Source of the DNA: an uncultured Acidobacteriaceae bacterium
Lineage (GTDB): Bacteria > Acidobacteriota > Terriglobia > Terriglobales > Acidobacteriaceae
Reading direction: 5' to 3'
Assembly: GCA_963709025.1 (NCBI GenBank)
Contig: CAVPVE010000022.1
Span: 3,509-67,508, forward strand
Length of the DNA: 64,000 bases
The notes beneath the pieces were generated by a model. It was given only the letters and a program-made list of their open reading frames with translations, did not search any database and was not told where the DNA came from. This document shows, piece after piece, positions 5,999-64,000 of this stretch (the stretch's first letter is position 1; each line of letters starts with the position of its first letter). Both the position numbers and the translations under genes were made by a program.

Positions 5999-6038
5999 AA
6001 GTAACTCCGATCTGGTGAATGTGATGTGCGCTACTGAA

Positions 6039-6611: not shown

Positions 6612-6887
6612 GCCGTCTGCGGAGCGGCCCGGTCACTGAGCGCACTTTCCATCCGAGGTTTGCGGCGATTGCATTCGACGTAGGCGCCGGGTGCGCGCGC
6701 ACTGACCAAGCGCGCTGTGAACCGCCTTTACACCAAGCAGCATCATCGACGCTTTAGCACCGCGCAATTGTCAGTTTTGACAGTGCAACAGGAAAACTCG
6801 GGATCAGCCATAACTTAGTAGAAGTGAGTTGATACGTCGGGCTCGGCCCAGGGGCTGAGGGAGTTTGCGCAACCATAGCGCTGCGCT

Positions 6888-8354
6888 CTAAGGTTTCTTT
6901 GCGGCGCTGGCAGTTGGAACTGTTGCGGCTGGTGAACTGTCGAAACTGCCGCCCAGCGCGAGGTGCAGGTTAATGCGATTGGCGAGTTGAGTATTGCGTA
7001 GTTTGATGAGATCAGTCTGGCTCTGGATCTGGCCAGCTTGCAACTGCAGCACCGACAGAAAGTCCATCGATCCAGCTCGGTACCTCAGGTTGGCCACGCG
7101 GACGGCCTCGCCGTGGTCGCGTACGGCGCTCTCTGTATGGGGGAGACGTTTGGCCAACAACTCTTCGTTCGTCAGTGCCACTTCCACCTCGGTAAATGCT
7201 CTCAGCGACACGCCACCAAAATGGGCAACGGATTGCTGCTGCTGCGCAGTGGCGATCTTGATTTGCGCTCGCAGGGCACCGCCCTCATAAACCGGGACGA
7301 ACATTCCGGCCGCAGCGTGAACCAGCCAAGGGTTGAGGCCCAGCACGGCGAGGAGCGGGTCACTCAGGCGCCCACCTTCCAGATTGAGCGAAAAGCCCGG
7401 CAGCAGTGCCAGTTTTGCGGCTTCCTGGGTTCGGAATGCCGCCAATACCTGGTGTTCTGCAGCAGCGATGTCGGGCCGGCGCTCAAGCAACGAGGAAGGA
7501 AGTCCGGGCGCAACCGGCGGAGGCAGGGGGACAAACGCTTCTGCGATCTCTAGTTCGGCAGCCGGATAGCGACCGATGAGCACTTCCAGTGTGCGCCGTG
7601 CCTCGCTGTACAGACCTTGCGCGATTGTTAATTGGTTCTGGGCCTCATCGAGTTGATAACTCGCCTCCGCCACGTCGAGGTCTGCGACCTTGCCCGCAGC
7701 CCGTCTTATTTTCACCAACTCCAGCAGTTGCTGATATATGTTGACGGCTTGTTCGGTGAGTGTGAGCAGTTGACGAGTTTCGATGGCCAGATACCAGTTC
7801 TTTGCTGTGGTCGCAGCCAACGACTGCCGCGCAAATGCGTAATCAAGCGCAATTCCTTCGTAGTTCTCCCGCGCAGCAGCATGCTGGGCCCGTAACCGTC
7901 CCCAGATATCGATTTCCCAGGCGGCCCCCCCTAGTATGGTGCTGCTCTGGTTTTGCTGGGTCACATCTTTATCCGTCGAGCGCGTGGTAGCAGCGGAGAG
8001 GTTTGCGCTAATTTGTGGCTTGAGCTTGGAGCCGACCACAATGACGCTCTGGCGTGCTTCCTCCACCCGCGCAGCGGACTGGCGCAGATCGAGATTGTTC
8101 GAGATGGCTTCGGAGACCACAGCTTCGAGACCAGTATCCTGAAAGGATTTCACCCAGCCATCATCGACATTCACACTATTTGAAGTTGAACTCCAAGCCG
8201 GCGGCAGAGGTGTTGCTTTCGGCAAGGCCTGAATGACGATCGTCGGATGGGGTGGTGGTTTGTGGAGTGCACAGCCGCAGAGGCTGGCTCCCAATACAGA
8301 TCCGAGAGTCGCCAACACCATCCTACGAACCGAATTCATTGACATACGTTTCAT
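6888..8354 (-). CDS. Efflux transporter outer membrane factor lipoprotein, NodT family
   Basis: Lipobox LCGC. Two TolC-like repeats (QSAARVEEARQS..., AAEHQVLAAFRTQEAAKLALLPGFSL). I prefer the ATG at 8354, where TGATG overlaps the HlyD stop. The track ORF extends to 8387. Confidence 0.85.
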   Translation of the reverse strand: MKRMSMNSVRRMVLATLGSVLGASLCGCALHKPPPHPTIVIQALPKATPLPPAWSSTSNSVNVDDGWVKSFQDTGLEAVVSEAISNNLDLRQSAARVEEARQSVIVVGSKLKPQISANLSAATTRSTDKDVTQQNQSSTILGGAAWEIDIWGRLRAQHAAARENYEGIALDYAFARQSLAATTAKNWYLAIETRQLLTLTEQAVNIYQQLLELVKIRRAAGKVADLDVAEASYQLDEAQNQLTIAQGLYSEARRTLEVLIGRYPAAELEIAEAFVPLPPPVAPGLPSSLLERRPDIAAAEHQVLAAFRTQEAAKLALLPGFSLNLEGGRLSDPLLAVLGLNPWLVHAAAGMFVPVYEGGALRAQIKIATAQQQQSVAHFGGVSLRAFTEVEVALTNEELLAKRLPHTESAVRDHGEAVRVANLRYRAGSMDFLSVLQLQAGQIQSQTDLIKLRNTQLANRINLHLALGGSFDSSPAATVPTASAAKKP

Positions 8355-9631
8355 CAGAATGGCATCGGATATAGCCAGTTGAACCACGAATGCATGCGGA
8401 TCGTAATCTTCCGGAGCACAGCGAATCCGCCTCCGCTGGTATATATCGCGGCTGCGCCCTGCGCGCCGATTGGAAGCCCGACTTTGGACGGATGGTCAAG
8501 GTATATCTTTACTGCGAACTCTCCCTGAGGTTGCATCGGGTCTGCCGGATAGAACTTCGGAATAATATCGCTGGGAAGGTATTGTCCTTCTCCGTTTGCC
8601 CACCATACGCTGTCCACTTTTGCAGCAAAGACTTGCCCGGGGTAAAGGTCAAGCGAAACTTCAACGGGTTGCCCGATCCTCACATACTTCAGCGTCTCCT
8701 GATTGAAACTGGCCAGCAGGTAGCGATCGTTATCGACAATGAAGGAGGCGATCCCGCCGATTCGGTAGATGCCCGCGACCATACCGGGTTGGACTTGGAG
8801 ATTCACAATGTAGCCGTCCTCGGGCGCCACCATCAGGGTGTTATCCAGGTAATAACGTGCGAGTTCAAGCTGCGCTTTCAGGCTCTCGACGGTCGCGGCC
8901 GACTGCTTTTGTGCGGCTTCGCTCTCTTTCATTTGGGCTGCCGCACCCGCCACGGTCGTGTTGACTCCTTCCCACTGCGATTCGTACTTGAGGCGGGAAC
9001 GTTCAGCTTCGGCAGTTGCTTGCGACACAGAAGCCTCGTCGGCACTCATCTGGGCCTGCCACTTCTGAGCATCTTCTTCCGGGCCAGCACCCTTTTGCGC
9101 CAACCACTGGGAAAGCTGTTGCTGATACTTGGCATATTCCAGTTCACTCTTCGACCGGAGTACTTTCTGTTCGGAAGCGTCCAGATCGGCTTTGTACATA
9201 AGCACGTCCTGATTAGCCCCAGCCAGTCCTGCTTTCAACTGGTCAACCTTATATTTCGAAGACAATGCGCTCGCTGAGGCGGCCTCGATTTGCGCCTCGA
9301 GTTGCCGAACCTGGTATTCATACGGACGGCGGTCGAACTGGAACAGGGGTTGTCCCTTCTTCACCGGAACATCCGGTCGAACCAGCACGGCGGTCACAAG
9401 AGTCGGTTCGGGAAGGCGCGGAACCAGTTGAATGGTGTGTTGCACGACTTTCAGGTTCGACGAGTACGGGGTGACGAAGCGCAGACCGACGATAAAGATG
9501 AGGAACAAATGGGCGGCAAAAAAGAGGGAAACGATCCCCCATGTCTTGGTGAACTTGAGCCACTTGAATTTAAAAAACACCAACCAGACAAAAGATAAGA
9601 ACACGAACGTGATGAGGAAGGCGAACATCAT
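8354..9631 (-). CDS. HlyD-family membrane fusion / secretion protein
   Basis: N-terminal TM segment, a long coiled coil, and a beta-barrel C-terminus (PGMVAGIYRIG..., VRIGQPVEVSLDLYPGQVFAAKVDSV). A 4-nt overlap with the upstream DUF3302 gene. Confidence 0.85.
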   Translation of the reverse strand: MMFAFLITFVFLSFVWLVFFKFKWLKFTKTWGIVSLFFAAHLFLIFIVGLRFVTPYSSNLKVVQHTIQLVPRLPEPTLVTAVLVRPDVPVKKGQPLFQFDRRPYEYQVRQLEAQIEAASASALSSKYKVDQLKAGLAGANQDVLMYKADLDASEQKVLRSKSELEYAKYQQQLSQWLAQKGAGPEEDAQKWQAQMSADEASVSQATAEAERSRLKYESQWEGVNTTVAGAAAQMKESEAAQKQSAATVESLKAQLELARYYLDNTLMVAPEDGYIVNLQVQPGMVAGIYRIGGIASFIVDNDRYLLASFNQETLKYVRIGQPVEVSLDLYPGQVFAAKVDSVWWANGEGQYLPSDIIPKFYPADPMQPQGEFAVKIYLDHPSKVGLPIGAQGAAAIYTSGGGFAVLRKITIRMHSWFNWLYPMPF

Positions 9632-10014
9632 GACGTTGGCTCTTCGGGGCGCGGTTCATTCGCCGCTCTGGCCTTGGGTTCCGTCGATGCAAGCTTGTTA
9701 TCCGGAGCCAGATTTCCGGTGAGTCGCGCCAACTCTTCGCCGATGTTCTGCTGTTCTTGCTTGGGGAAGTAGCGAATATCAACGACATCGGTGGGCTTGA
9801 AGGCCCACATGAACGCCTGCATCCATGGGACAACGGCCAGAAATCCTAACCATCCCATGGTGTTGATGGCATCGGCGTCGGGGTGCTTGCGCGCGATTGC
9901 GATCCGCCCCGGCAGACCGAGGACTAACACGGCCACAGTGAGAAAGGCGCCGATCAGGGCGAAAATGACCAAGAAGGTCAGGTAGTCCCAGATAGTCAAA
10001 TCAAAACCAAGCAT
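9628..10014 (-). CDS. DUF3302 small membrane protein (YibI-like)
   Basis: Two TM segments with LPGRIAIARKHPDADAINTMGWLG. First gene of the DUF3302-HlyD-OMF operon. Confidence 0.7.
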   Translation of the reverse strand: MLGFDLTIWDYLTFLVIFALIGAFLTVAVLVLGLPGRIAIARKHPDADAINTMGWLGFLAVVPWMQAFMWAFKPTDVVDIRYFPKQEQQNIGEELARLTGNLAPDNKLASTEPKARAANEPRPEEPTS

Positions 10015-10458
10015 AAAGAACTCTCAGTCGCGCTTTTACGAACATCGCGTCGACTAGCATCTATGGGGCTGGCGCGCCATCTGCGCCCTCTTCGCACTGG
10101 ATAACTCGACTCGCGGACGAGGCGCGACCCTCATTTTCAGGAGGGCCACTCCCGGACGGTCTAACGCTACTCGGACTATGCCAGTTTCGAACATTGGCAA
10201 AACTGCCAATCGTGTGGAAGAGCGCCGAACTCGCGGCATTGTTCCTGAGTCAGGTGCGACCCCTTTTTTGGGATCAAGAGGGTATGCGAGGAAAAGGGGC
10301 ACCTTCTCACTCGGCAAGATTCGACTGCACCTCCTGTCAGTTCTCGCAGTGTTGGGACTGGGCGAAACCGAGCTACGATGTTTTTCGCCATCGCCATACG
10401 GAGGCGGTGGTGTTCACCCGGTACGGGTCATACTGAGCAACTTTGTTTTAGGAGGCGA

Positions 10459-12240
10459 ATGCCGTCGCAAGCCTGGGTGACGCTGGGAATTCTGGCGGTG
10501 ATGTTCGGGCTGCTGATATGGAACCGGCTGCCGGCATGGCTTGTATTCGTTGGTACCATCACGGCGGCCATGACCCTGAAGCTGGCATCTCCTGAGGCGC
10601 TGTTGAAAGGCTTCAGCAACACCGGCGTTCTGACCGTTGCGGCGCTGTTCCCAGTGGCTGCGGGGATGTACGCAACGGGAGCGATCTCGCTTCTATCGCA
10701 ACGTCTGATCGGCTTACCAAGGAGCGTGACCGCCGCGCAGATCAGGATTCTTCCGCCCATCGCGCTGGGCAGTGCTTTCCTGAACAATACGCCGCTCGTA
10801 GCGATGATGATTCCGGTAGTGCGCGATCTCACGAGGGTCACCGGACTGCCGCGGTCGAAGCTTTTTATGGGTCTGAGCTTCGCGTCGATTCTGGGCGGCA
10901 CCATGACGACCATCGGGACATCCGTAAACCTGATCATCGTTGGGCTGGTAGGCAATGCGATGGCGTCGGGTCTCCTCACAGGGATGAAGCCGCTGACAAT
11001 CTTCGAACCGATATGGGTGGGCCTGCCAGCAACGGTTGCGGGACTTATTTTCATGATGTTGGTTGGTACACGATTGTTGCCGGTCGACCGGCTGCAAGAG
11101 GTCGTGGGCTCGGCGAAACGAATTTTCCGAGTCGAGCTCCGCGTGCAGCCGCAATCCAACCTGGATGGCAAGACGCTGGACGCCGCAGGGTTCGCCAGGC
11201 CGGAGGGCTACAGCCTGCTGTCTGTCACACGCGGCGGAGCGGCGGTGGAGATCTCCTCGACTCTCAAACTGAGCGGGGGAGACGTGCTGGCTTTTGCCGC
11301 GCCCGCAGGAGTTTTGCCGGGACTTTGGACTACGATCGGGCTGGTTCCGCTATACGGGGACCAGACTTCCGTCCCGCGCTACAGACATCAACTCGTGGAA
11401 GTGGTCGTTTCGCCAAAGTCTCCCGCAGTGGGCCGTTTGATCTCGGAACTTCCTTTGCCAGATAGCCCCTACAACGCTTCAATTGTGGGTGGGTCGCGCC
11501 ACGGCCAGGCGTTGGAGGTTCCCTTGGGAGACTACCGGATACAGGCTGGTGACAGCGGAATTCTGGAAGTGGATGATTCCTTCTTCTATGAGAACCGGCG
11601 CGAGACTGACTTCATTCTGACCAGAGTGATTGAGGGGTTCAGAGTGCAACGGATCGATCGTGCATGGACGGCCGCGGTGATCACGGTGGTGATGGTGGCC
11701 GCTGCCGCGCTAGGGATAACGAGCATGCTGAATGCCGCTCTGCTGGCTACCATGGCGATGCTGCTCTCAGGTTGCCTGCCCATTGAGCGCGCTTGGCGCA
11801 GCCTGGACTGGAAAACGTTGGTCGTGCTGGGGTCGGCGGTGGGTCTGGAGGCAGCCGTCACAGGGAGCGGGCTCTCGCAGGAGGTTGCGAAGCTGTGCGC
11901 CATCATTGGAGGCGGCAACCCGAGGGTATCGCTGGCAGTGGTGTTGGCGGGCACACTGATCATGACCAACATCATTACCAATGCAGCAGCGGCAGCTTTC
12001 ATGTTTCCGGTGGCCCTGTCGATGGCGCAGCGGCTGCACGTAAGTTTTCTGCCGTTCGTCATCATCTTGATGGTGGGAGCTTCGTGCGCTTTCATCAATC
12101 CCGCGGGATTCCAGACGAACCTCATGGTACAGGAGCCTGGCGGATATACCTTCGCAGACTTCGCGAGGGTGGGACTGCCACTTACGGTCGTGGTCGGGGT
12201 CGTGGTTATCGTTATGGCGCCATTGGTCTACGGGTTCTAA
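10459..12240 (+). CDS. SLC13/DASS-family anion permease with two central TrkA-C domains
   Basis: I moved the start to the ATG at 10459 because AGGAGG lies 5 nt upstream. Polytopic halves flank two TrkA-C-like segments (RVELRVQPQSNLDGKTLDAAGF..., HQLVEVVVSPKSPAVGRLISELPLP...). Confidence 0.8.
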   Translation: MPSQAWVTLGILAVMFGLLIWNRLPAWLVFVGTITAAMTLKLASPEALLKGFSNTGVLTVAALFPVAAGMYATGAISLLSQRLIGLPRSVTAAQIRILPPIALGSAFLNNTPLVAMMIPVVRDLTRVTGLPRSKLFMGLSFASILGGTMTTIGTSVNLIIVGLVGNAMASGLLTGMKPLTIFEPIWVGLPATVAGLIFMMLVGTRLLPVDRLQEVVGSAKRIFRVELRVQPQSNLDGKTLDAAGFARPEGYSLLSVTRGGAAVEISSTLKLSGGDVLAFAAPAGVLPGLWTTIGLVPLYGDQTSVPRYRHQLVEVVVSPKSPAVGRLISELPLPDSPYNASIVGGSRHGQALEVPLGDYRIQAGDSGILEVDDSFFYENRRETDFILTRVIEGFRVQRIDRAWTAAVITVVMVAAAALGITSMLNAALLATMAMLLSGCLPIERAWRSLDWKTLVVLGSAVGLEAAVTGSGLSQEVAKLCAIIGGGNPRVSLAVVLAGTLIMTNIITNAAAAAFMFPVALSMAQRLHVSFLPFVIILMVGASCAFINPAGFQTNLMVQEPGGYTFADFARVGLPLTVVVGVVVIVMAPLVYGF

Positions 12241-12516
12241 GCACATCGGTTCAACATTCGCGGTCACACTTGGCACCTCTAACAATAGTCGATACAACAA
12301 ACCCTCCAGGCTAGTTTGTTCCTTCCTTATGCCGCGGCCAAGCGCCTTTTGACCAAAACCTTTTCTTTGCAAATCCGCTCGGCGGTTTTAACGAGCCCTG
12401 TCAGAAATGACAATAGGCACGTGCCCGCGCTCGTGGTGCACTACGAGCGTGATCAGCAAGTGCTTCCGTACAGATTCTCAGCTTCAAATACAAGTCCACC
12501 AAAGAAGGAGTAAATC

Positions 12517-14103
12517 ATGGCAACAAAACAACCGAATATTCTGATCCTTTGGGGCGACGACGTCGGCATCTGGAACATCAGTGCTTTCAGCGATGGCCAG
12601 ATGGGCTATCGCACGCCGAACATCGACCGCGTCCGCAACGAAGGCGTTAAATTCACCGACTACTATGGCCAGCAGAGCTGCACCGCTGGACGCGCAGCAT
12701 TCATCACCGGCCAGAACCCGCTCCGTACCGGCTTGACCAAAGTCGGAATCCCCGGCACCGCCGTCGGATTGCATGCGGAAGACCCGACTATCGCTGAACT
12801 GCTCAAGCCGCTCGGCTACGCCACCGGCCAGTTCGGCAAGAACCATCTCGGCGATCGCAATGAATACTTGCCGACCGTCCACGGATTCGACGAGTTCTTC
12901 GGCAATCTTTATCACCTGAACGCCGAAGAAGAACCAGAACTGCCCGACTATCCGAAGAACCCGGGATTCAAGGAGAAATTTGGACCCCGCGGCGTGCTGC
13001 ATTGCGTGGCGACGGACAAGGACGACCCCACGGTTGATCCCCGTTTCGGACGAGTGGGCAAGCAGATCATTAAGGACACCGGCCCCCTGACCAAGAAGCG
13101 CATGGAAACTGTCGACGAGGAAATCACGGCCGGCGCTCTGGCGTGGATGGAGAAGCAGGTCAAGGCCGACAAGCCTTTCTTCCTCTGGTACAACTCGACG
13201 GCAATGCACGTGAGGACTCACCTCGCCGCCAAGAACCGGGGCAAGAGCGGGCAGGACGATTACAGCGATCGCATGGTCACCCACGACGAGCAAATCGGCC
13301 AGATGCTGGATAAGGTCGATCAGCTGGGCATCGCCGAAAATACCATCGTCATGTATTCCACCGACAATGGTCCCGAGAACGACACTTGGCCCGATGGCGC
13401 CAACACGCCCTACCGCAGCCAGAAGGACACGAACTGGGAAGGTGCCTGGCGCGTTCCGGCGTTCATGCGCTGGCCGGGCAGGATCAAGGCTGGCTCAACC
13501 CTGAACGGCATCGTCTGCCATCAGGACATGCTGCCGACGTTGCTGGCAGCAGCGGGCGAACCGAACATCAATCAGAAGCTGCTCGACGGCTACAAGGCTG
13601 GAGACAAGACCTTCAACGTGCACATCGACGGCTTCAACCAGTTGCCCTATCTCACAGGCCAAGTGAAGGAGAGTCCCAGAGAAGCCTTCTTCTACGTCAG
13701 CGATGACGGCGGCATCATGGCTGTCCGCGTGGGCGACTATAAGCTGGTATTCCAGGAGCAACACGCAGAAAAGATGCGGGTCTGGCAGCAGCCGTTCGTA
13801 CAGCTTCGCCTGCCTGACATCATCCACCTGCGACGCGATCCGTTCGAGCGGGCCCTCGATAACTCGAATACCTACCTCGACTGGATGTTCGATCACATTC
13901 CACAGCTCTATCTGACGCAAGCCGTCGTGGCGGCACAGATTGATGAATACGTGAAGTACCCACCACGCCAGAAGCCAACCTCTTTCAACCTGGATGCAGT
14001 CATGGCGCAATTAGGGCCAGCGATCCAGGCGTATCAGGAAAAGAAGAAGGAATTGGCAGGCAAAGCGCCGGTTGCAGACCATGGTGTTTTGGTTGGCAAA
14101 TGA
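12517..14103 (+). CDS. Arylsulfatase (formylglycine-dependent)
   Basis: NILILWGDDVG..., sulfatase signature [13 protein letters not shown] (C-x-A-x-R), GKNHLGD and YSTDNGPE. Confidence 0.9.
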   Translation: MATKQPNILILWGDDVGIWNISAFSDGQMGYRTPNIDRVRNEGVKFTDYYGQQSCTAGRAAFITGQNPLRTGLTKVGIPGTAVGLHAEDPTIAELLKPLGYATGQFGKNHLGDRNEYLPTVHGFDEFFGNLYHLNAEEEPELPDYPKNPGFKEKFGPRGVLHCVATDKDDPTVDPRFGRVGKQIIKDTGPLTKKRMETVDEEITAGALAWMEKQVKADKPFFLWYNSTAMHVRTHLAAKNRGKSGQDDYSDRMVTHDEQIGQMLDKVDQLGIAENTIVMYSTDNGPENDTWPDGANTPYRSQKDTNWEGAWRVPAFMRWPGRIKAGSTLNGIVCHQDMLPTLLAAAGEPNINQKLLDGYKAGDKTFNVHIDGFNQLPYLTGQVKESPREAFFYVSDDGGIMAVRVGDYKLVFQEQHAEKMRVWQQPFVQLRLPDIIHLRRDPFERALDNSNTYLDWMFDHIPQLYLTQAVVAAQIDEYVKYPPRQKPTSFNLDAVMAQLGPAIQAYQEKKKELAGKAPVADHGVLVGK

Positions 14104-26314: not shown

Positions 26315-26361
26315 CCCTTTTAAGGCATGGGTCGCAGGTTCGAGTCCTGCCGCGCTCACCA
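26315..26361 (+). other. 3' half of a tRNA-Lys(UUU) gene (att-site remnant, not a functional tRNA)
   Basis: Layout: CTTTTAA anticodon loop, GGCAT, GGGTC variable loop, GCAGG-TTCGAGT-CCTGC T-arm, CGCGCTC, A, CCA. No 5' acceptor strand (GAGCGCG) or D-arm exists upstream, and the 5' anticodon-stem strand is unpaired. Confidence 0.7.
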
Positions 26362-26394: not shown

Positions 26395-27630
26395 CTAGGC
26401 ATTTTCTGCCAAGAGATTCTGACCCACACCCAGCCCACAACTCTCAAACCAGCGCACCTGCACGCCGTGCATTTCGTCGGTGACCACCTGAGCGTAACTC
26501 CTCAGCATGATCTCCGGTCCCGCATCGCGCATGTTGCCTTGGGCGGTCTTCACATCAGTCTTGTCGATGGACACCATCCAAGTAGCCATGCTTGAACGCA
26601 GGGAGTGAAGCCCGAATCGTTGTCCATCAGCGATCTGTATTCCCGCGGCTATCGCAGCGGAACGTAGATGGTCAGTGACGAAGACTCCCGCGCTCATCGG
26701 GATTGCCCCATGCATCTTGAACGAGGGAAAAATCCAATCGTCGTCCTGCGCATAAGGCGTGACGCGACGCCATTGGCGCAGGAACCATGCCAACTGCTGA
26801 GACATTGACACCGGGGCCTTCGAGGCTTTTGTTTTCGGTTTGTCGATGCATGCAGCTGTCCAACGGCGCTCGATCTTGATCTGGTTCTCATCCCAGATTA
26901 TGTCACGCCATTTGAGGCCACACGCTTCGGAAGCCCGAAGCGCGGTTGAGGCACAGACCAGAACGAGCATCTGGTGCATCGGATTCGGCAGCAGCAAGAT
27001 AATCTTCTTTACTTGCTCGGGCTTCACGATCACAGGAACGTAGTCCGATCCCACATCCTCCAGCCTCCATCCAGTAGCGGGATTGGTGGTTACAAGACCC
27101 TCGAACTGCGCCCAGTTGTAAATCGTTCCGATCATCGTCTTGATCTTCGAAATCGTAGGTCCGGCAAGGTCCCCATCATCCCGCAACAGATATAACCAGT
27201 CGCGGAGATCGCGTCTGGTGATTTTGTCGGCGATCCGGTTACCCCATTGAGGCATGATGTGGTTTTGGACATAAGATTTCGTGCTGTCCGTGGTCGTCTT
27301 CGCCCGACGAGAACCGGAGACAGACTTCCAGTTTCTGACGGAGAGATCGTACTCCAGCCCGTGCACCTTGTTCATGTAACCCGCCAGGACTCTCGTCATT
27401 GTGGTTTCTGGCCCAGCGTCCTTGTTGATGAATACGCGGACACCCAGCCGATCCACTTCCTTCCAAGCATCTTCCTTGGTCGGAAAATCCGCCAGCGCAC
27501 CGATAATTGTGCCGTTCTCGACGCGCCGATCCTCTTTCCGGACGCGGAACCTGAATAACCACATCCGGCACTTCTTGCCTTCTGTAATGCGCCAAACTTT
27601 CTTTAGACTCCCGTTCTGGTATGCCATCAC
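26395..27630 (-). CDS. Tyrosine-type site-specific integrase
   Basis: 411 aa. Box I ALRASEACGLKWRDI. HSLRSSMATWM (HxxR). C-terminal ...MLRSYAQV (catalytic Tyr). It ends 34 nt from the tRNA-Lys fragment. Confidence 0.85.
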   Translation of the reverse strand: MMAYQNGSLKKVWRITEGKKCRMWLFRFRVRKEDRRVENGTIIGALADFPTKEDAWKEVDRLGVRVFINKDAGPETTMTRVLAGYMNKVHGLEYDLSVRNWKSVSGSRRAKTTTDSTKSYVQNHIMPQWGNRIADKITRRDLRDWLYLLRDDGDLAGPTISKIKTMIGTIYNWAQFEGLVTTNPATGWRLEDVGSDYVPVIVKPEQVKKIILLLPNPMHQMLVLVCASTALRASEACGLKWRDIIWDENQIKIERRWTAACIDKPKTKASKAPVSMSQQLAWFLRQWRRVTPYAQDDDWIFPSFKMHGAIPMSAGVFVTDHLRSAAIAAGIQIADGQRFGLHSLRSSMATWMVSIDKTDVKTAQGNMRDAGPEIMLRSYAQVVTDEMHGVQVRWFESCGLGVGQNLLAENA

Positions 27631-28103
27631 TGGCCTCCTTTGCGGGAGCCGCCGCCGCCGATTGTACGGCTATTGCCCCCCTTCGGGCTACTGCCGTCGC
27701 CGAGCACCCAAGAACGAAGCTCGCTGAGGAGAAAACGCCATGTCTTGCGCTGTCCGAGGCCAAGAGGGTGCGCGGGGATTTCTCCACGTATCGCGAGCTT
27801 GAGGATGTGTTTGCGGGAGAATGAAAGAAACTGGGCTGCTTTGTCTGCGTCCACGAAATGCTCTAGTGGTGCACCGCACGCTTCTTTGCCGAGAGGCTCT
27901 TGGGAAAGCCAGTTTGGTTTGAGCTCATTGGGACTTGACTGCAATTCGATTGTGTTCAAGCATGACCACCTCACATCACTTCCAAGGGCTTTGTGCCCCC
28001 CTCCGGTTGGACGGGAGCGATCTCCGTTTGCGGGATCATTACAATTCTCGCCGGTCACTCTCCGTTTGTTCCCAATCTGGCGGACGCCGTGGGCTGTCCG
28101 CAC
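27627..28103 (-). CDS. Excisionase/AlpA-like HTH DNA-binding protein
   Basis: C-terminal VDADKAAQFLSFSRKHILKLAIRGEIPAHPLG..RKTWRFLLSELRSWV. Its stop overlaps the integrase start (ATGA). The true start is probably downstream of the 28103 given by the track. Confidence 0.6.
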   Translation of the reverse strand: MRTAHGVRQIGNKRRVTGENCNDPANGDRSRPTGGGHKALGSDVRWSCLNTIELQSSPNELKPNWLSQEPLGKEACGAPLEHFVDADKAAQFLSFSRKHILKLAIRGEIPAHPLGLGQRKTWRFLLSELRSWVLGDGSSPKGGNSRTIGGGGSRKGGQ

Positions 28104-47332: not shown

Positions 47333-47545
47333 AATCCCTCCCTCTCCGCCATGTAGTCTGAACTGCAGAGAATTCGTGCCTTCGTTTCTTTCGAAACTCG
47401 CGAATTCCGCCCATTTTTCGCGATTCCTGCTCGACAATCCGGACTGCAGAGAACGGACTTCCTTAGCGTCGGCCCTCATTAATCCGGCCTTTTCTCTGCA
47501 GGCACGATAAGCAGTCCGACTTCGACGATTTTGTTCGGCGAAGAC
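47333..47545 (+). repeat. Repeat copy A: tRNA-like 3' end (AATCCCTCCCTCTCCGCCA) plus about 190 nt of flank
   Basis: Aligns with copy B. Shared blocks include aactgcagagaa, tcgacaatccggactgcagagaacgg and gcagtccg. The motif ACTGCAGAGAA occurs at 47361-47372 and 47443-47453, and inverted at 47492-47501. Confidence 0.7.
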
Positions 47546-47745
47546 TTGGCGATCAGAAATCGAACTACTTACGAACCCGATTTGACTTCTTGCAGGGATC
47601 TCCGAATGCCGTGTCTGCTCCTGGATCGCGAGCATGTCAATCCCCTCATTCGCCTTGAACGGGGTTGCGCTACGGCTGCGCGCCGTGGATCGCGGCCCGA
47701 TCGCGCTCGGCCTATAATTGCAACGCTGGCAATTTGGAGCAAGCG

Positions 47746-49336
47746 ATGATGATGGCGGAGTCGCAGCCGCAAATGGCGGGTGGCACGGTAGAGAGCCGTG
47801 ACGAAAGGCACCTGTTTCCGATGCTAGGCGCGACCACGATTGTACTCCTGATTGCCGCGTGCAAGCTGGTGGGTGCATTTGTACGCGGGACACAGGTATG
47901 GTTACTTGGGTGACGAGCTGTACTTCCTGGCCTGCAGCCGTCATCTCGCTTGGGGCTACGTCGATCAGCCGCCGCTGATCGCGATGATTGCCTGGGCGGT
48001 GCGGAATACGCTGGGTCAGTCGCTGCTCGCGATTCGATTCTTGCCGGCGCTCGCGGGGGCGGTGGAGGTTGTGCTAACCGCGCTGATTGCGCGCGAACTC
48101 GGTGGGAGGCGCTTCGCGCAGGTACTTGCGGCGATTACCACGCTCACTGCGCCCGGCATTCTCGGGTCGGACAGCTTCTTCACGATGAATGCGTTCGAGC
48201 CACTGTTCTGGATGACCTGCGCGTATCTCGTGATTCGCATCATCCAAACCGGAAATGAGAGGCTGTGGATTTGGTTCGGCGTGGTCGCGGGCATCGGTCT
48301 CGAGAACAAGTACTCGATGATGATCTTCGGCGCTGGGATTGTCTTCGGATTACTGCTTACGAACCAACGAAAGCTGCTCGCGAATCCGTGGTTATGGATT
48401 GGCGGGGTGGTCGCGTTTGTGATTTTTGCGCCGAATCTCTGGTGGAATGTTCGGCACCACTTTCCATTTCTCGAATTGCAGGCCAACATTCGACGCAGCG
48501 GGCGGAACGTGCCGTTGGGCTTCTTCAGTTTCTTCGGTCAGGAAATTGGTGCGATGAACCCGTTGACCGCGCCCGTGTGGCTGGCAGGCCTGTGGTTTTT
48601 CTTGTTCGCGGAACAAGGGAAGAGATTTCGCGCGCTGGGCTGGGCCTGGGTGTTCACAGCGGGCGTGATCGTTACGATGAGTCCGCGCGTGTATTACCTC
48701 TTTCCCGCCTTTCCGCTCTTGTTTGCGGCCGGCAGCGTCCTGTGGGAAATGTGTCTCGAGGCGCGGCAGCGAAGGTGGGTGCGAGTGGCCTACCCGGCAC
48801 TGATGATCGCGGTGGGCGCGATTTCTGCGCCGCTGGCCACGCCGGTGCTGCCGGTGGAAACGTACATTCACTACACGCGCGCGTTGCACCTCTCGCCGCC
48901 TCCAAGTGAGACGCACAAGCTGGGCCCGTTGCCGCAGAATTATGCGAGCGAGTTTGGCTGGCCGGAAATGGTCGCGACGGTGGCGCGTGTTTACGACAGT
49001 TTGCCGCCGGGTGTTCGAGCGAAGACGGCGATCTTTGCCCCGAACTATGGCGTAGCCGGCGCGATCGATCTCTTCGGGCCGAAATTTGGATTGCCGTGGG
49101 CGATCAGCGGTCACCAAAGCTATTTCCTGTGGGGACCGCGCGATTACACCGGCGAAAGTATGATCTTCATGGATGATAGCCAAGAGCGCCTCGAGCAACT
49201 GTTTGTAAGCGTGCAGAAGGTCGCGAGCGTGTACCACCCATACTCGATGCCGTACGAGCATTTCGACGTGTTCTATTGCCGAGGGCTCAAGCAGCCGTTG
49301 AAGGAATTGTGGCCGCAGCTGAAGCACTGGGACTGA
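47746..49336 (+). pseudogene. Glycosyltransferase family 39 (ArnT/PMT-like), N-terminus shifted out of frame
   Basis: YGYLGDELYFLACSRHLAWGYVDQPPLIAMIAW... is typical of GT39. The first TM helix (MMMAESQ...LGATTIVLLIAACKLV) is in another frame, with the shift at the gtgggtg run near 47870. Alternatively the protein starts at the TTG at 47852 and lacks TM1. Confidence 0.65.
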
Positions 49337-49716
49337 AGAGCCCTCATCGGGAAGGCATCAAAGCGGCTCTGAGTTTTCGTCCGGCAAAGAGGTATGAGCA
49401 GAAATCTGTGCAAAACGCACGAAATCGCTCCTACAGTGGTCCAGCCCAATCGGAGAAGAGTTCGCTCGCCGTGACTGCTCGCTGAAGCGTGCAGTCACTG
49501 CGTGGGTATTTGCCGATGAAGAAAGGGCTCCGACAACTGACCACTTTCAGCCACACTATCGCCGGGAATTCGCCGTTTAGGATAGATGGAATAGCGAAAC
49601 GAAACCGCACTGATCAAGAAATCAAAGCGCGCGTTTTGGACAAAAAAATCTCTGCTGGAGTTTTGTTATCTGCAACTTACGGACACCTCGGGCTTTGGAG
49701 GCTTAAGACCTGTACC

Positions 49717-49935
49717 GAAGGTTCGAATCCCTCCCGCTCCGCCAGCAAGTCTTAACTGCAGAGAAATTGCGCCGCCTCTTACCCCGAAGTAGGCAAGACA
49801 GCCCAGTTTCGTGATCTTTGGTCGACAAATCGGACTGGAGAGAACGCACGACTCTGCGGTCAAATGGCTTCACCGTCCTGGCTTTCTCCGGGAAGGCGCA
49901 TCGGCAGTCCGGTTTGGATGGTTTCTCGCCGGCGA
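49717..49935 (+). repeat. Repeat copy B: tRNA-like T-arm + acceptor + GCCA (GAAGGTTCGAATCCCTCCCGCTCCGCCA) plus about 190 nt of flank
   Basis: Diverged direct repeat of copy A. Motif copies at 49754-49765 and 49834-49844. No foldable 5' half lies upstream, so this is not a functional tRNA. Confidence 0.7.
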
Positions 49936-50448
49936 ACGCAATGGGATCACAGACCCATCGATGTGGCAAGCGGGTTGACTTTTTCAACATCTCGGAAAGG
50001 CGTTCGGGCAATTCCCTGACCTCATCGCCGCGGCTCCAAATGGCTTCATTAGGCGCACCAAAGCAGGAGGTGAGGATGTTCTAGTCTTTCCTCGAAGCCG
50101 ACGAATTGCCCATTGGTGGACGAAAAGGAACTTCTGATCTTACAGGTCAGAGAAAAGGGGGGTCAAACGGGCTGGGGGGGGTGAGAACAACACGGGAGGG
50201 AATATGCACCCCCTGGACCTCGGGCACTCCCGGTTAGGCTGCCATCCGAGGAGCGGCGACTGGATTTGGTGACCGCCTCGTTGCTCAAAGGAGGTTCGGA
50301 TTTCGTAACAAACCGGCTCGATTTCAAGTTTTTCAATATCGCTTCGTAGTGACTAGCTTTCAAAGACGAAGGGGGCGGGATTCATTAGTGCTCTGGGGCA
50401 GAAGAAGAACGGGGTGCGTTACAAAAACCGAACACAATACCTTTTCTG

Positions 50449-56833: not shown

Positions 56834-58357
56834 TCAATCCCCGACGCCAACCAATTCCGCCAATGCCCTCCAGTGCCTCGGGTGCGGTCTGTATCCTTTT
56901 CGAATCTTGCTCGCATACCAGTTGGAAACTCCAAGTGCCGACCGAATGGCTGACATCGAAACGCTAGACAGCAAAGGCTGGATCTTTCCCGCGAACAATT
57001 CGGGTGTTAGCCAAGCTGGCTGATCGGATTCCTTCCAAGAATGCTGCGCTAGTGCGTTCTTCCGAGCTTTGGTCGCTCGCTTAACCTGAGCTTCAGGGCC
57101 ATTTGCCGTTCGACGTCCGATTCGGGCTGCACTCAACATATTCTTGGTCGATGTCGGCACACCGCATTGAACACAAGTCTTGCTCTCGCTCCGAATTCTC
57201 TTTCCACATCCCGGGCAGAGATTTTCGATCGGCTGTGCTACGCGCACGCTCATTTCAGATACGACACCTTTAGCTGCGCGTCTGTGTGTTTGGGTCAAGT
57301 GCGTCGGTGCATGAGTGTACTGCGTTCGCCTCTGGGTTGTTGACCAGAATTGTTTAGCAACCCATTCGGCTACCGGAGCTACAGCGCGTCTCCATATTGA
57401 AGCTGTTTCAGACAAACGGACAGCGAAGGGAGCCATTAACCGGCAGTTGCCGTCCCGCTGTTCGAAAAACCACTCCCGCCTTAGCGGTTGCCGCGTGATC
57501 CAATCCAGCAAGTACGAGTCCACGCTAGACCGGACCGGCTCCATGAGATCACAGGCCAGGCTGTCGCGAGCCGGGGTATCAACGTGCATGACACCCAAAC
57601 CAGGATCAAGTCCCAGCGCAGCAGCCGCCAATCGAGCTTCAGATTCTAGGACGCAATACAAATAGTTCAAGATTGCGTTCGGCGGATTCACGGCGGATCG
57701 AGGCGAGCCCGTCAACGGTGAGACCCGCGTTCCGAAGCTGCGCCAATGTTCAGGTACGCGGGGCAGGTCCTTCTTGGGAAAATTGATCGGCAGCGTGCTC
57801 CATGCAGACCAGAAGGCACGGGCCGCCTGGGATTCGATAAGGCGAATTGTTGAGATGCAATCAGCTTGAGGCAGCTCGGCTTTATAACGCGCGATCGTAT
57901 CGGCGGTCAAAGAATCTAGAAGCCTGGTACGCGCTACTTGCTCCTGCCCAGAAAGCTTCTTACCGATCAGGTCCCGAGCGATCCGAAGAGCTGCTCCATT
58001 CGAGACTGCCAGAGATTGCGCACGTCGCAGTTTGGCGTCGGAAGATCGAACAGGGCCCGTTGTTGCGAGCACTGAGCCGTCTCGATCGAGCATGACAAAG
58101 CTCGCGTCCTGGTCCGCCAGCCATCGGAGTGCCGCGAGCGAAACCATGCCGTCCGAGCCGATAACGACAAGCCGTCGAAGGCCATGTCCCACCCTTGGGA
58201 AGCGTGCTTGACGACGATCTTTTGCAATTCCATCTTCAACGACCAAGTGACCTCGATCGACGCGCACGCTAGTCCCGTATCCAAAAAGCGTGACTACCCC
58301 TTGTCGAGGCTGAATGTCTGTTTGAGAAAACGAAGTTGAGGCCATTGGATCTCCCAT
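56834..58357 (-). CDS. cas1: Cas1-family integrase homolog (solo Cas1 / casposase-like) with zinc-ribbon + HTH C-terminal extension
   Basis: N-terminal beta domain: VVTLFGYGTSVRVDRGHLVVEDG...VVIGSDGMVSLAALRWLADQDASFVMLDRDG. Catalytic-domain motifs: IESQAARAFWSAW, NAILNYLYCVLESEA and LGLDPGLGVMHVDTPARDSLACDLMEPVRSSVD. C-terminal CPGC-x10-CVQC and ...ALGVSNWYASKIRKGYRPHPRHW. Confidence 0.85.
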   Translation of the reverse strand: MGDPMASTSFSQTDIQPRQGVVTLFGYGTSVRVDRGHLVVEDGIAKDRRQARFPRVGHGLRRLVVIGSDGMVSLAALRWLADQDASFVMLDRDGSVLATTGPVRSSDAKLRRAQSLAVSNGAALRIARDLIGKKLSGQEQVARTRLLDSLTADTIARYKAELPQADCISTIRLIESQAARAFWSAWSTLPINFPKKDLPRVPEHWRSFGTRVSPLTGSPRSAVNPPNAILNYLYCVLESEARLAAAALGLDPGLGVMHVDTPARDSLACDLMEPVRSSVDSYLLDWITRQPLRREWFFEQRDGNCRLMAPFAVRLSETASIWRRAVAPVAEWVAKQFWSTTQRRTQYTHAPTHLTQTHRRAAKGVVSEMSVRVAQPIENLCPGCGKRIRSESKTCVQCGVPTSTKNMLSAARIGRRTANGPEAQVKRATKARKNALAQHSWKESDQPAWLTPELFAGKIQPLLSSVSMSAIRSALGVSNWYASKIRKGYRPHPRHWRALAELVGVGD

Positions 58358-59971: not shown

Positions 59972-60303
59972 TGAACGAAAAGCCGATCGAGACTGCGCGT
60001 AGAAGAGCTCGGCGCTTGGAGCAAGGAAGGTGCTTGCTTTGTGGGAGAACAGGTTTCCTTATCGAGCAAGACCATACCGCTGGTCAGAACCATGATGAGT
60101 TTCTGACGGCTCCACTCTGCTTGGCATGCCACGCAATGGTTACGGAACTTCGCCGTCGAGCAGACGCCGACATGCGTGCTCAGCGGAATCTTAGGCTGAC
60201 CGTCAAGTGTGCGCTCAACGCTACAGCGGTGTTTCTTCGAATGCTCGCCGATGCAATGCATCGATGGGCCCAACTTCTTTCTGAAGAGGAGAGCTTGCCA
60301 TGA
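59968..60303 (+). CDS. HNH endonuclease-like protein
   Basis: CLLCG...EQDHTAGQNHDEFLTAPLCLACH (CxxC...DH...N...CxxCH). ATGA overlaps with both neighbours. Confidence 0.65.
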   Translation: MMNEKPIETARRRARRLEQGRCLLCGRTGFLIEQDHTAGQNHDEFLTAPLCLACHAMVTELRRRADADMRAQRNLRLTVKCALNATAVFLRMLADAMHRWAQLLSEEESLP

Positions 60304-63185
60304 ATCACGGAATTTTTCTGCGCTGTCACACATGCATTCTGGACGAGGAAACCCTGGAAAAGGGTGGAAAGAGGAAACAGGACCCACTTCCGAAGTATGT
60401 TCTCGTTCTCGACACCGAGACCACAACCGACGCACTCCAGACCTTAAATTTCGGCGTCTATCAGTTTTGTGAATTGACAACCGAAGGCAAGTATCGGTGT
60501 CTGGAGGAAGGAATCTTCTATGGCGACGAACTAGGATCCGAGCAGCAAGCCGTACTTCGCGCTTACGTCACCCAGCAAAACGAGAACCGGGCCAAGGACG
60601 AATTGAAACTCAGGCTTTACGAACGCCGCGTATTTGTCGAGAAAGTGATGTACACGGCGGTTCAGGCTGGAGCAGCAATTGTCGCTTTCAATCTGCCTTT
60701 CGATCTGTCGCGGCTCGCTGTCGAATACCGGGTAGCGCGCGGAGCTGGCGGAGGCGGCTGGAGCTTTGTCGTCTTTCGCTACAAGAATAAGTCGAAGGAT
60801 GAATGGGTTCCGAACACATTCCGTCCTCGCGTCCAACTTCGTCCGAAGGACTCGAAAGCTGCGTTTATTCGGTTGGCGGGAGGCGACATGAATCAACCGT
60901 ATCGTGTCGGTCGCTTCTTAGACCTTAAGACCCTGGTCTGGGCCCTCCGAAACAAGAGTCTCAGCCTTGACAGTGCATGTCGCGAATTCAAAGTACCGGG
61001 CAAACTCGACAACTACGTTCCAAGTGGAAGGATCACACCGGAAGAAGTCAAGTATTGCAGGCAAGACGTTCGTGCGACCGTCGGATTGTTGAATGCACTA
61101 ATCGCGGAATTCAAGAACTATCCTCTGGGCGATCTTCCACCGGAAAGAGCCTACTCAGCCGCATCCATCGCCAAAGCCTTCCTGAAGACAATGGGAGTTA
61201 TTTCACCCCAGCGAAAATTCCAGCTCGACAACCAAACAAACGGCATCTGCATGCAGGCTTACTACGGCGGACGCGCGGAAATTCGCATCCGTCATACTCC
61301 TGTCCCGGTTGTGTATACGGATTTCACAAGCCAATACCCGACGGTTAACACTCTTTTGGGACTATGGCGAGTGCTAACGGCAGATCGGGTGCAAGTCGTA
61401 GACGCTACCGATGAGATTCGATCCCTTTTGCAATCGCTCACGATCGATAATCTGCTTGATCAGAGAACTTGGCCTAAGCTGGCATTCTTCGCATTGATTC
61501 AGCCTGAAGCCGACATTTTTCCGGTTCGAACGGTCTACGGCGATGGTCAGACAGTCGATCAAACAAACATAGGACTGAATCCGCTCACGTCAAATGCACC
61601 GGTTTGGTCTGCGGGTCCTGACGTGGTCGGATCAGCGCTATTAACGGGAAGACCGCCGAAGATTTTGCGAGCCATTCGGATCGAACCGATGGGCGTTCAG
61701 AAGGGCATGAACTCCGTTACGTTGGGGACAGGATCGATTGATCCGCATGCGGATGATTTCTTTCGCAAAGTCATTGAAGAGCGAAAGGGAAAACAGAAAA
61801 GCGACCCTCTCTATTATTTTCTCAAAATCCTGGCGAACGCCGGGTGCTATGGAATCTATGCCGAAGTCAACAAACTCCAAGTTGGAAAGAACAAGGCAAA
61901 GAAAATCGGAATCTTTTCGGGAGAGCTGAGCGGGACTGAACGAACCTGCGTCATGGAAGTGCCGGGCCCCTGGTATTTCCCACCTGTGGCCTCTCTGATT
62001 ACAGCTGGCGGAAGATTGCTTTTGGCCATGTTGGAACGGATGGTTACAGACGCAGGCGGAACCTACCTCATGTGCGACACCGACTCCATGGCTATCGTCT
62101 CCTCTGAACGAGGCGGACTCCTCCGATGCAGTGGTGGCTCGCATCGCATATCGGATGGAAGTGATGCCATTAAAGCTCTGTCATGGAAGCAGGTTCGGGA
62201 AATAGTCGATCGATTCGAGGCTTTGAATCCGTATGACAAGAGAGTGATTCCGGGCTCAATCCTGAACATTGTCCAGGAGCTCAATTTCGATTCGGAAGGT
62301 GGCCAACGACAACTGTACGGCTACGGTATTTCCGCAAAACGCTACGCTCTGTACACCCAGGAGAAATCTGGAATTCACCTTATCAAAGTGAGTGAGCATG
62401 GCCTCGGGCTTTACTATCGGCCAAAAGAAGGTCGCGATCCAGAATGCGAGGTGTCAACTTGGATCAAGGAAGGTTGGCAATGGATGTTGAACCGAGCTCT
62501 CGGCTTCCGCAGTTACAAACCGAAGTGGTTTCGCCTTCCGGTTATGAGACGGATTGCCATCAGCACGCCAAATGTGATGGCAGCACTGCGTCGATTACGA
62601 CGCGATCAAGCCAAACCCTACAATTTTGCATTGTCTCCAGTCTTGGTGAACCTAACCAACATCCCACTGACTCTGTTGGCTCCTTTCGAAAAGGACTCGT
62701 CTCAATGGATGAAATTGCCTCATGTGAACATTCATGATGGCACAACTCACTGTTTGGAGAAGCCAACCGTACCTATCGTGGTGCAAACCTTTGAGATGGT
62801 ATTCAAGCAGTATCACGGCCATCGCGAAGCCAAGAGCTCCGCGCCGGATGGCAGTCGTTGCAAACCCGATACGGATGGTCTGCTCAAGCGATATCCGGTG
62901 ACGGCAACGAGTTTTCATCTGATCGGCAAAGAAACTGAGCGAGGCTGGGAGCAGAGCGATGATGTCAGTACCCTCGTGCCTTCGCTAGTGCGATACGGCT
63001 CTGACACTGGTATTGCCGACGAGCAACTCAGAAAACGGCTGCTTGAGATACCACTAGCCTTCCTGGAATTCGAAACCGGATTGAGTCGGCATACGATCGT
63101 GCGAGCACGAAGAGGCCAACCAGTACACGCGCGGTCACTGCAGCTTCTTAAGAATGTTGTCCGCCGAGTGCCAGTTCGAAAATGA
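60300..63185 (+). CDS. polB: Family B DNA polymerase with 3'-5' exonuclease domain
   Basis: ExoI LVLDTETTTD. ExoII IVAFNLPFDLSRL. ExoIII YCRQDVRAT. Motif A VYTDFTSQYPT. Motif B KILANAGCYGIYAE. Motif C YLMCDTDSMAIV. KxY-like ISAKRYALY. HTH-like C-terminal tail. Confidence 0.85.
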   Translation: MNHGIFLRCHTCILDEETLEKGGKRKQDPLPKYVLVLDTETTTDALQTLNFGVYQFCELTTEGKYRCLEEGIFYGDELGSEQQAVLRAYVTQQNENRAKDELKLRLYERRVFVEKVMYTAVQAGAAIVAFNLPFDLSRLAVEYRVARGAGGGGWSFVVFRYKNKSKDEWVPNTFRPRVQLRPKDSKAAFIRLAGGDMNQPYRVGRFLDLKTLVWALRNKSLSLDSACREFKVPGKLDNYVPSGRITPEEVKYCRQDVRATVGLLNALIAEFKNYPLGDLPPERAYSAASIAKAFLKTMGVISPQRKFQLDNQTNGICMQAYYGGRAEIRIRHTPVPVVYTDFTSQYPTVNTLLGLWRVLTADRVQVVDATDEIRSLLQSLTIDNLLDQRTWPKLAFFALIQPEADIFPVRTVYGDGQTVDQTNIGLNPLTSNAPVWSAGPDVVGSALLTGRPPKILRAIRIEPMGVQKGMNSVTLGTGSIDPHADDFFRKVIEERKGKQKSDPLYYFLKILANAGCYGIYAEVNKLQVGKNKAKKIGIFSGELSGTERTCVMEVPGPWYFPPVASLITAGGRLLLAMLERMVTDAGGTYLMCDTDSMAIVSSERGGLLRCSGGSHRISDGSDAIKALSWKQVREIVDRFEALNPYDKRVIPGSILNIVQELNFDSEGGQRQLYGYGISAKRYALYTQEKSGIHLIKVSEHGLGLYYRPKEGRDPECEVSTWIKEGWQWMLNRALGFRSYKPKWFRLPVMRRIAISTPNVMAALRRLRRDQAKPYNFALSPVLVNLTNIPLTLLAPFEKDSSQWMKLPHVNIHDGTTHCLEKPTVPIVVQTFEMVFKQYHGHREAKSSAPDGSRCKPDTDGLLKRYPVTATSFHLIGKETERGWEQSDDVSTLVPSLVRYGSDTGIADEQLRKRLLEIPLAFLEFETGLSRHTIVRARRGQPVHARSLQLLKNVVRRVPVRK

Positions 63186-63977: not shown

Positions 63978-64000
63978 GATTTCCCCGTCGTCGTCTAGCC

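Follow-up and report, generated by a model that had tools for sequence, protein, structure and literature searches.

Paired tRNA-Ser 3'-end repeats on an Acidobacteriaceae contig belong to a genus-wide family of probable attachment-site units in Candidatus Sulfotelmatobacter

Genomic islands are well known to stack at tRNA and tmRNA genes. Staphylococcal cassette chromosome (SCC) and pseudo-SCC elements insert at the 3' end of a conserved gene by means of large serine recombinases (LSRs; CcrAB and CcrC), and cassettes without ccr are mobilised in trans. Here we analyse a 64,000-nucleotide stretch of DNA from an uncultured Acidobacteriaceae bacterium (C22:3509-67508, "the window" below; contig C22 is 68 kb long, and the assembly has 48 contigs, 6.69 Mb and 47 tRNA genes), in which two diverged direct repeats bracket a single glycosyltransferase gene. 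Copy A runs from 47333 to ~47589; the core of copy B runs from 49705 to ~49982, with an upstream arm from ~49364/49440. Both start with the 3' end of a tRNA-Ser, and both are probably members of a portable attachment-site unit, specific to Candidatus Sulfotelmatobacter, that comes from elements integrating at the 3' end of tRNA-Ser genes.

Several described systems resemble this arrangement in part. With SCC it shares LSRs at the 3' end of a conserved gene and tandem cassettes separated by direct repeats, but the SCC target is the protein gene rlmH, its repeats are short, and excision and integration have been demonstrated there, whereas the units described here are known from sequence alone. 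The ssrA islands of Dehalococcoides, with the CcrB-family LSR DsiB, lie in tandem with direct repeats of the 3' end, and some have no integration module (PMC3146451). Both systems show islands stacked where a small RNA gene ends, short direct-repeat borders, a junction in the T-loop region and an LSR as integrase (a candidate one here), and the ssrA islands that lack an integration module are read as cis-mobilisable. The two differ in that the target here is tRNA-Ser (three isoacceptors), in that a ~20-bp repeat and 15-bp motif there contrast with a conserved 0.25-0.6-kb unit here, and in that here most cassettes and whole arrays are recombinase-less, arrays also lie away from the target, and the LSR backbone includes a terminase. 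Prochlorococcus tycheposon islands reflect repeated integration at tRNA genes, including tRNA-Ser (bioRxiv 10.1101/2020.12.28.424599); as is proposed here, older elements are pushed outward and partial tRNAs and degenerate elements are scattered through the island, but the enzymes are tyrosine recombinases and no conserved 0.5-kb unit is reported after each partial tRNA. Islander-type tRNA islands (PMC4383910) have a displaced 3' tRNA fragment at the island end and anticodon-loop or T-loop junctions, as do the elements described here, but our contig has no intact tRNA, the A-B interval has no integrase, and the sequence after the fragment is itself a repeat. An intact target tRNA at the array end on the same replicon is present in the relatives G164 and G296, and is absent from C22. 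Integron arrays and clusters of attC sites lacking integron-integrases (CALINs) likewise have cargo split by a reiterated recombination site and include orphan arrays without a recombinase. An integron cassette array was considered for the present locus and rejected, as there are no IntI and no attC-type hairpins, the units (0.25-0.6 kb) are tRNA-derived, and the 2-10-kb cassettes hold several genes in both orientations.

Copies A and B and their tRNA-Ser ends

In blastn and MAFFT comparisons across the assembly, 47333-47458 aligns with 49726-49849 at 72% identity over 126 nt (E = 2e-10), and recognisable blocks run on for ~240 nt. No third copy exists in the whole genome, including the 924 nt of contig past window position 64000. 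The two direct repeats thus lie where the original prediction, made from the letters of the window, had placed them; they are longer than it proposed, since family alignments (below) stretch both to a conserved TTGAC near 47587 and 49980 and B has an additional upstream arm, and the supposed local pair, though real, belongs to a dispersed, genus-wide family. In the following list M denotes the ~240-270-nt flank that follows the CCA in family members, M_A and M_B are its representatives in the two copies, and the alpha and delta19 classes are those defined in the next section.

47333..47351, + strand: copy A core, AATCCCTCCCTCTCCGCCA (19 nt), corresponding to tRNA-Ser from the T-loop to the CCA; homology begins at AATCC (delta19 class)
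47352..47589, + strand: copy A module M_A (post-CCA arm), from alignments with 10-57 family members; blocks AGTCTGAACTGCAGAGAA (+4), CCGGACTGCAGAGAACGGACT (+87), inverted TTCTCTGCAG / GCAGTCCG, and terminal TTGACT at 47582-47587
49364..49704, + strand: alpha arm upstream of the copy B core, a conserved feature of at least 26 units; contains the GTGACTGC...GCAGTCAC hairpin (49473-49498) and GCAACTTACGGACAC (~49672-49686)
49705..49744, + strand: copy B core, ~40 nt of tRNA-Ser(GCT) 3' sequence (variable-arm 3' strand, T arm, acceptor, G73 and CCA), 93-95% identical to C32:202377-202418
49745..49982, + strand: copy B module M_B, with the same blocks as M_A; second 11-mer ACTGCAGAGAA at 49834-49844 (1 mismatch), terminal TTGACT at 49975-49980

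The tRNA-like ends had been proposed to be Ser- or Asp-like. Comparison with the tRNA genes of the genome identifies them as genuine tRNA-Ser ends, and the Asp alternative falls away because both copies match tRNA-Ser 3' ends. Positions 49708-49744 of B match tRNA-Ser(GCT) at 93-95% over 37-42 nt, including the variable-arm 3' strand, which is specific to that isoacceptor; in A, the 19 nt at 47333-47351 show no difference from the ends of tRNA-Ser(GCT) (contig C32) or tRNA-Ser(TGA) (contig C18). The intact tRNA with the same 3' end that the original prediction suggested looking for elsewhere in the genome is therefore present, as tRNA-Ser(GCT) at C32:202324-202417, a different contig, and the flank 3' of it is unrelated to the repeats. 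The A junction falls at a canonical integrase sublocation (AATCC of the T-loop), and the ~40-nt start of B is not canonical. Neither copy is called a tRNA by ARAGORN or Rfam; a permissive Rfam scan gave one chance match, to a plastid tRNA-Ser antisense region, which reflects the tRNA-Ser-like sequence. We note that the tRNA-Ser(TGA) gene of this genome (C18:140717-140806, - strand) has an integrase ~1 kb downstream, and that its 3' end is repeated directly, over 19-24 nt, at C18:95456-95479 beside a second integrase; C18:95456-140806 looks like a 45-kb island without M.

The upstream alpha arm of B (~270-380 nt) has no counterpart in A. It is 73% identical to that of locus L024 over 170 nt and shares shorter blocks with five further loci; a 20-unit profile shows it conserved back to about 49440, and 49364-49438 is matched at 91% beside a unit in G294. 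The 11-mer ACTGCAGAGAA, to which the original prediction had drawn attention, occurs five times in the window with at most one mismatch, each time within A or B (1.1 expected; five were reached in 1 of 100 shuffles). The shorter GACTGC is also present twice, inverted, in the alpha arm (49473/49491), and in the beta arm of relatives it adjoins the core.

The same orientation of A and B, their 2.4-kb spacing and their being the sole copies in the genome would suit a local tandem duplication of one attachment region on the contig. The two are only 72% identical, however, and each is nearer to units in other species: A to those at L026 (82% over 220 nt) and L013 (76% over 265 nt), and B to those at L022 (79% over 121 nt) and L014 (73% over 266 nt), so that they come, by sequence comparison, from different sub-lineages of units. 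Their left sides differ too: B combines the alpha arm with 40 nt of tRNA, while A has 19 nt and no arm. Local duplication is accordingly a very unlikely origin for the pair.

The genus-wide family, its cassettes and its recombinases

The relatives of this bacterium are metagenome-assembled genomes (MAGs) of Candidatus Sulfotelmatobacter, peat and soil Acidobacteriaceae, of which 121 were sampled. With the central 23-mer of M (AACCGGACTGCAGAGAACGGACT, up to 3 mismatches) as family marker, 39 of them were found to carry the family, in up to 12 copies each, against 0-1 matches for the reversed control; G315, a long-read MAG, carries 16 copies of M. A 200-genome search at the level of the order found M essentially in Candidatus Sulfotelmatobacter alone. 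Among 57 non-redundant units M always starts 3-4 nt past ...CTCCGCCA, and what precedes it falls into five junction classes, of which alpha is the commonest unit form:

Intact-tRNA class: M fused to tRNA-Ser(GCT) at 7 loci, to tRNA-Ser(TGA) at 4 and to tRNA-Ser(GGA) at 1
Gamma class, 6 units: homology begins in the anticodon loop (TTGCTAAACCG)
Alpha class, at least 26 units, including B: ~40 nt of tRNA-like sequence after a conserved arm with GCAACTTACGGACACGTCGG
Delta19 class, at least 7 units, including A: homology begins exactly at AATCC of the T-loop, and the upstream DNA is unrelated
Beta class, 8 units: 8-10 nt of homology after ...CCCTGTTAGCAGGGAATT...GGTTAGCGCCAGACTGC

M carries several GGACTGC(AGAGAA) motifs in both orientations, which may be protein-binding sites. 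Its inverted blocks (CGGACTGC.AGAGAA / TTCTCT...GCAGTCCG) are invariant in sequence and not compensated; such sequence-conserved paired blocks fit what is expected of putative DNA-binding sites. A structured RNA was considered and rejected: the RNAalifold consensus of 11 units was weak, at -11 kcal/mol, its covariation term was positive (unfavourable), and there was no Rfam match. A coding function was also rejected: the open reading frames (ORFs) of the unit cluster by DNA repetition, its indels are not multiples of three, and there is no Pfam match. One unit (L018, G003:C5) contains a three-fold tandem repeat of an ~18-nt motif (CCACAACGACTGGG...) ~130-200 nt after the CCA, and the variable middle of M therefore tolerates insertions.

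The intact-tRNA class raises the question of whether M is simply a native conserved sequence 3' of tRNA-Ser (a promoter or terminator, or a small RNA), in which case A and B would be right-end scars (P-O-B') of unrelated islands and no element would carry M. M does follow intact tRNA-Ser genes of three isoacceptors, it is paired with many unrelated left arms (gamma, delta19 and those of tyrosine-integrase islands), and in LSR elements with 5-10 kb of upstream sequence it lies only on the outer, right side. Yet the tRNA-Ser(GCT) genes of most genus genomes, including this one, have other, mutually unrelated downstream flanks, arrays have M after each fragment and not just at the distal end, and up to 16 units occur in genomes with only 4-5 tRNA-Ser genes. 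An RNA function of the flank is also opposed by the lack of covariation and of an Rfam match, and we consider a native flank unlikely.

The interval between A and B has the same anatomy as the arrays of relatives, with M_A, one gene, the alpha arm, the tRNA-like core and M_B in that order. Its gene is

47746..49336, + strand: PMT_2 (GT-C, GT39-like) glycosyltransferase, cassette cargo (Pfam PF13231, 7e-27; PF02366, 8e-6)

and it has a single frameshift near 47860-47894, between the first transmembrane helix and the RYGY.GDEL motif; the N-terminal helix is in the frame of 47746-47913, the remainder is in that of 47852-49336, and alignment with its paralogue begins only at 47894. The lone GT39 pseudogene of the original prediction is indeed a single frameshifted gene, though its family is PMT_2, and the frameshift could mark a genuine pseudogene or an assembly indel. 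No close homologue of this cassette was found in 120 genus genomes.

In relatives the units separate 2-10-kb cassettes, most of which carry no recombinase, and unit pairs 4-10 kb apart are common. The array on G164:C8 reads tRNA-Ser(GCT)-M, 5.6 kb, alpha-M, 6.2 kb, alpha-M, and that on G296:C1 reads tRNA-Ser(TGA)-M, LSR segment, beta-M, an efflux operon of the resistance-nodulation-division (RND) type, alpha-M, a gene of 1320 aa, beta-M; further arrays are found in G076, G099, G215 and G315. These arrays and the A-PMT_2-B interval consist of tandem cassettes split by direct repeats of the target 3' end, some of them recombinase-less, and the anchoring of arrays on intact tRNA-Ser genes in relatives supports the idea, already put forward for A and B, of successive integrations at a tRNA 3' end. 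The cassettes of relatives contain several genes in both orientations, including Ser/Thr kinases with PD40 or TPR domains, extracytoplasmic function (ECF) sigma factors, CadC-like regulators, TonB-type receptors, and ATP-binding cassette and RND transporters.

When 1,450 ORFs drawn from about 75 loci were clustered all against all, in search of proteins recurring beside the alpha arm or M, just three things emerged: an LSR at beta arms, a group of tyrosine integrases encoded just before tRNA-Ser(TGA), and widespread cargo, for example Ser/Thr kinases. The LSR, a protein of 578 aa with Resolvase and Recombinase domains, is the sole recurrent neighbour of the units. It is encoded directly 5' of beta-CTCCGCCA-M-start: where M had led to the locus, the gene stops 160-660 nt short of the beta arm, and at four of five loci picked by protein homology alone (54-76% identity) the distance to the beta arm is 160-590 nt, the fifth (L101) having a gap of 4.1 kb; overall the LSR adjoins the beta junction at 10 of 11 loci. 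M is present in 12 of 15 LSR-positive and 27 of 106 LSR-negative genomes (Fisher p = 7e-5). The LSR elements have a phage-like backbone that encodes TerL, DUF5681, ParB_N + N6/N4 DNA methylase and DUF2924 proteins (L098, G237:C1:398000-417999, at 5952-12533; also L097, L078 and L101). At L101 this backbone lies between the LSR gene and the beta arm, a layout that suggests internal rearrangement.

The LSR junction has the form GCGCCAGACTGC-(N3)CTCCGCCA(N1)-GCAGTCTGG and contains a dyad, CCAGACTGC-N12-GCAGTCTGG, of 9 bp around a 12-nt spacer, the right half of which is the start of M. Because of this, and because three LSR loci hold only the first 30-110 nt of M, the M-start with its first ACTGCAGAGAA looks like a candidate recombinase half-site and the rest of M appears specific to alpha-type cassettes. 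The notion that the 11-mer is a candidate recombinase site thus gains from its conservation across the family and from the position of its first copy within the dyad beside the LSR gene. At the other end of these elements, the 5-10 kb upstream of five LSR genes contained no tRNA-Ser fragment that could mark attL, and a unit lies 2-7 kb upstream of the LSR gene in G296 and at L100 only. Tyrosine integrases lie just upstream of tRNA-Ser(TGA) or of a fragment-M junction at 3-4 loci, and they have no consistent proximity to the units.

A dispersed repeat, either like a miniature inverted-repeat transposable element or a regulatory or noncoding RNA sequence, that contains a piece of tRNA-Ser and was spread by transposition or homologous recombination would account for the many scattered copies, for orphan arrays far from tRNA-Ser genes and for the constant company of alpha arm, core and M; units are also often at contig ends in fragmented assemblies. 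Such a repeat would not be expected to join intact tRNA-Ser genes at one precise base in 12 loci, to have left junctions at classical integrase sublocations, or to have an LSR gene adjoining one junction class at nearly every locus. Neither terminal inverted repeats nor target duplications of the unit were seen, and RNA covariation is lacking. We regard the dispersed-repeat explanation as improbable.

The casposon beside copy B and other elements of the contig

Beyond copy B lies a block with genes for an RHS-like protein, Cas1 (56834-58357, - strand) and a family-B DNA polymerase (PolB, 60300-63185), the latter two confirmed by Pfam. It is a casposon of ~14.7 kb with its own 35-nt terminal inverted repeats (TIRs), and the RHS-like gene (1695 aa) is its cargo. 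Its left edge and the feature next to it are

50178..50212, + strand: casposon left TIR (GGGGTGAGAACA..ACGGGAGGGAATATGCACCCC), the true left edge of the RHS/cas1/polB block
50137..50166, - strand: sigma-70-like promoter TTGACC-N18-TAAGAT, which abuts the casposon end and lies outside the repeat unit

The left TIR has a 91% inverted match at the end of the contig (64890-64924) and is 97% identical to the sequence at either end of a paralogous casposon, on contig C43. This paralogue (C43:112998-128347; Cas1 81%, PolB 80% and RHS-like gene 85% identical) is flanked by a 14-bp direct repeat, CGATCCCGTTTGAC, that has no relation to tRNA-Ser, and neither a tRNA nor M is nearby. The 52 nt outside the left TIR (50126-50177), which hold the promoter-like site, share 90% identity with the DNA flanking the C43 casposon on its right. 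No contig end overlapping the right end of the casposon was found in the assembly.

The original prediction took copy B, the last landmark before the RHS/cas1/polB block, as a possible left junction of that block, that is, as its target duplication or terminal repeat; some archaeal casposons do insert at the 3' ends of tRNA genes (PMC6977970, PMC10359463). This part of the prediction did not hold. The casposon TIR begins 433 nt past the CCA of copy B, at its own target, and has its partner at the contig end, so copy B is not a casposon junction; the C43 paralogue, with its 14-bp duplication, has no link to tRNA-Ser or M; and neither a direct nor an inverted copy of the sequence from 49745 onward exists elsewhere in the genome, nor did the further repeat looked for past 64000 turn up in the 924 nt of contig there. 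The chance that copy B is the end of this element is negligible.

We also observed that at C43:106849-128397 a 6-kb derivative, with different ends and only part of PolB, forms a tandem with the casposon, a third copy of CGATCCCGTTTGAC lying at the far side of the derivative; that, at the left end of the casposon next to copy B, G6/G8 runs mark the exact junction of target and inverted repeat; and that a third, more distant Cas1/PolB pair is present at C25:371825-377824.

From about 26 kb onward, several integrative elements are patched together on the contig. At 26315-26361 there is a 47-nt fragment that is 100% identical to positions 30-76 of tRNA-Lys(TTT), the intact gene being on contig C7, followed by a tyrosine integrase gene (26395-27630, - strand) and an HTH_17 excisionase-like gene (27627-28103, - strand). 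The segment 26315-28103 resembles the tRNA-proximal boundary of a further island from which the 5' part of the tRNA is missing. Its integrase is the one nearest to A and B, and it belongs to the tRNA-Lys-type site.

A proposed portable attachment site at tRNA-Ser

In the portable attachment-site reading, which we take to be the most probable, the unit consists of a tRNA-Ser 3' piece ending in CTCCGCCA plus M, the commonest form adding a conserved 270-380-nt upstream arm. Site-specific recombination would place mobile elements right at the 3' end of tRNA-Ser genes, and each insertion would rebuild the tRNA and shift the previous junction outward; because earlier junctions are displaced in this way, they would become the borders between stacked cassettes. 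At least one recombinase for the CTCCGCCA/M-start site would be the phage-like LSR of the relatives, which may also be the enzyme that moves the recombinase-less cassettes. On the contig studied here, the DNA left of 47333 would be the right end of an island whose crossover took place in the T-loop, and 47352-49704, from M_A through the alpha arm of B, would be one 2.4-kb recombinase-less cassette with the frameshifted PMT_2 gene as cargo. M_B would open the next cassette, and the casposon would have inserted there later, at its own unrelated target ~430 nt further on. As the genome has no matching LSR and the contig no anchoring tRNA, A and B would now be orphan relics, inert or mobilisable only in trans.

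Several observations weigh against this interpretation. No recombinase lies between or beside A and B, the PMT_2 gene being alone in the interval; ARAGORN finds no tRNA gene on the window or on the whole of C22; and this genome encodes no close homologue of the LSR. No recombinase was found to be recurrently tied to the alpha arm, the class of B, and the array contigs G164:C8 and G215:C1 have neither tyrosine integrases nor LSRs. The conserved arm of 240-270 nt is far longer than a serine-recombinase site needs. All 33 alpha arms seen lead into M, none of them having the non-M flank that one model expects at an array end, and this constant pairing is as compatible with a self-contained 0.5-kb unit as with a hybrid junction. 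The enrichment of GACTGC in A and B is modest (p about 0.01 each). No pair of empty and occupied sites was found; the one comparison made, of G164 with this genome at tRNA-Ser(GCT), showed inversion or rearrangement.

A stronger version, which we put forward only as a speculative possibility, is that the alpha unit is a portable copy of the tRNA-Ser attachment site, one per recombinase-less cassette, and that together these form an integron-like gene-capture platform driven in trans by the LSR. In the literature searched for serine-recombinase islands at tRNA or tmRNA genes, which gave analogues only, three features appear undescribed: a genus-wide 0.25-0.6-kb unit after every displaced tRNA-Ser fragment; its presence in up to 16 copies per genome, with most of the delimited cassettes recombinase-less; and its link to a phage-like LSR and not just to the usual tyrosine integrases.

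If the alpha unit does act in this way, every insertion would be a new landing pad, and cassettes and phage-like LSR elements could stack wherever a unit had landed, which would help to explain the paralogue-rich accessory genome of these bacteria, with its kinases, ECF sigma factors, TonB-type receptors and efflux pumps. Peatland Acidobacteria are uncultured and few mobile elements have been recognised in them; if the units are functional landing pads, they would provide a concrete route of gene gain in these organisms.

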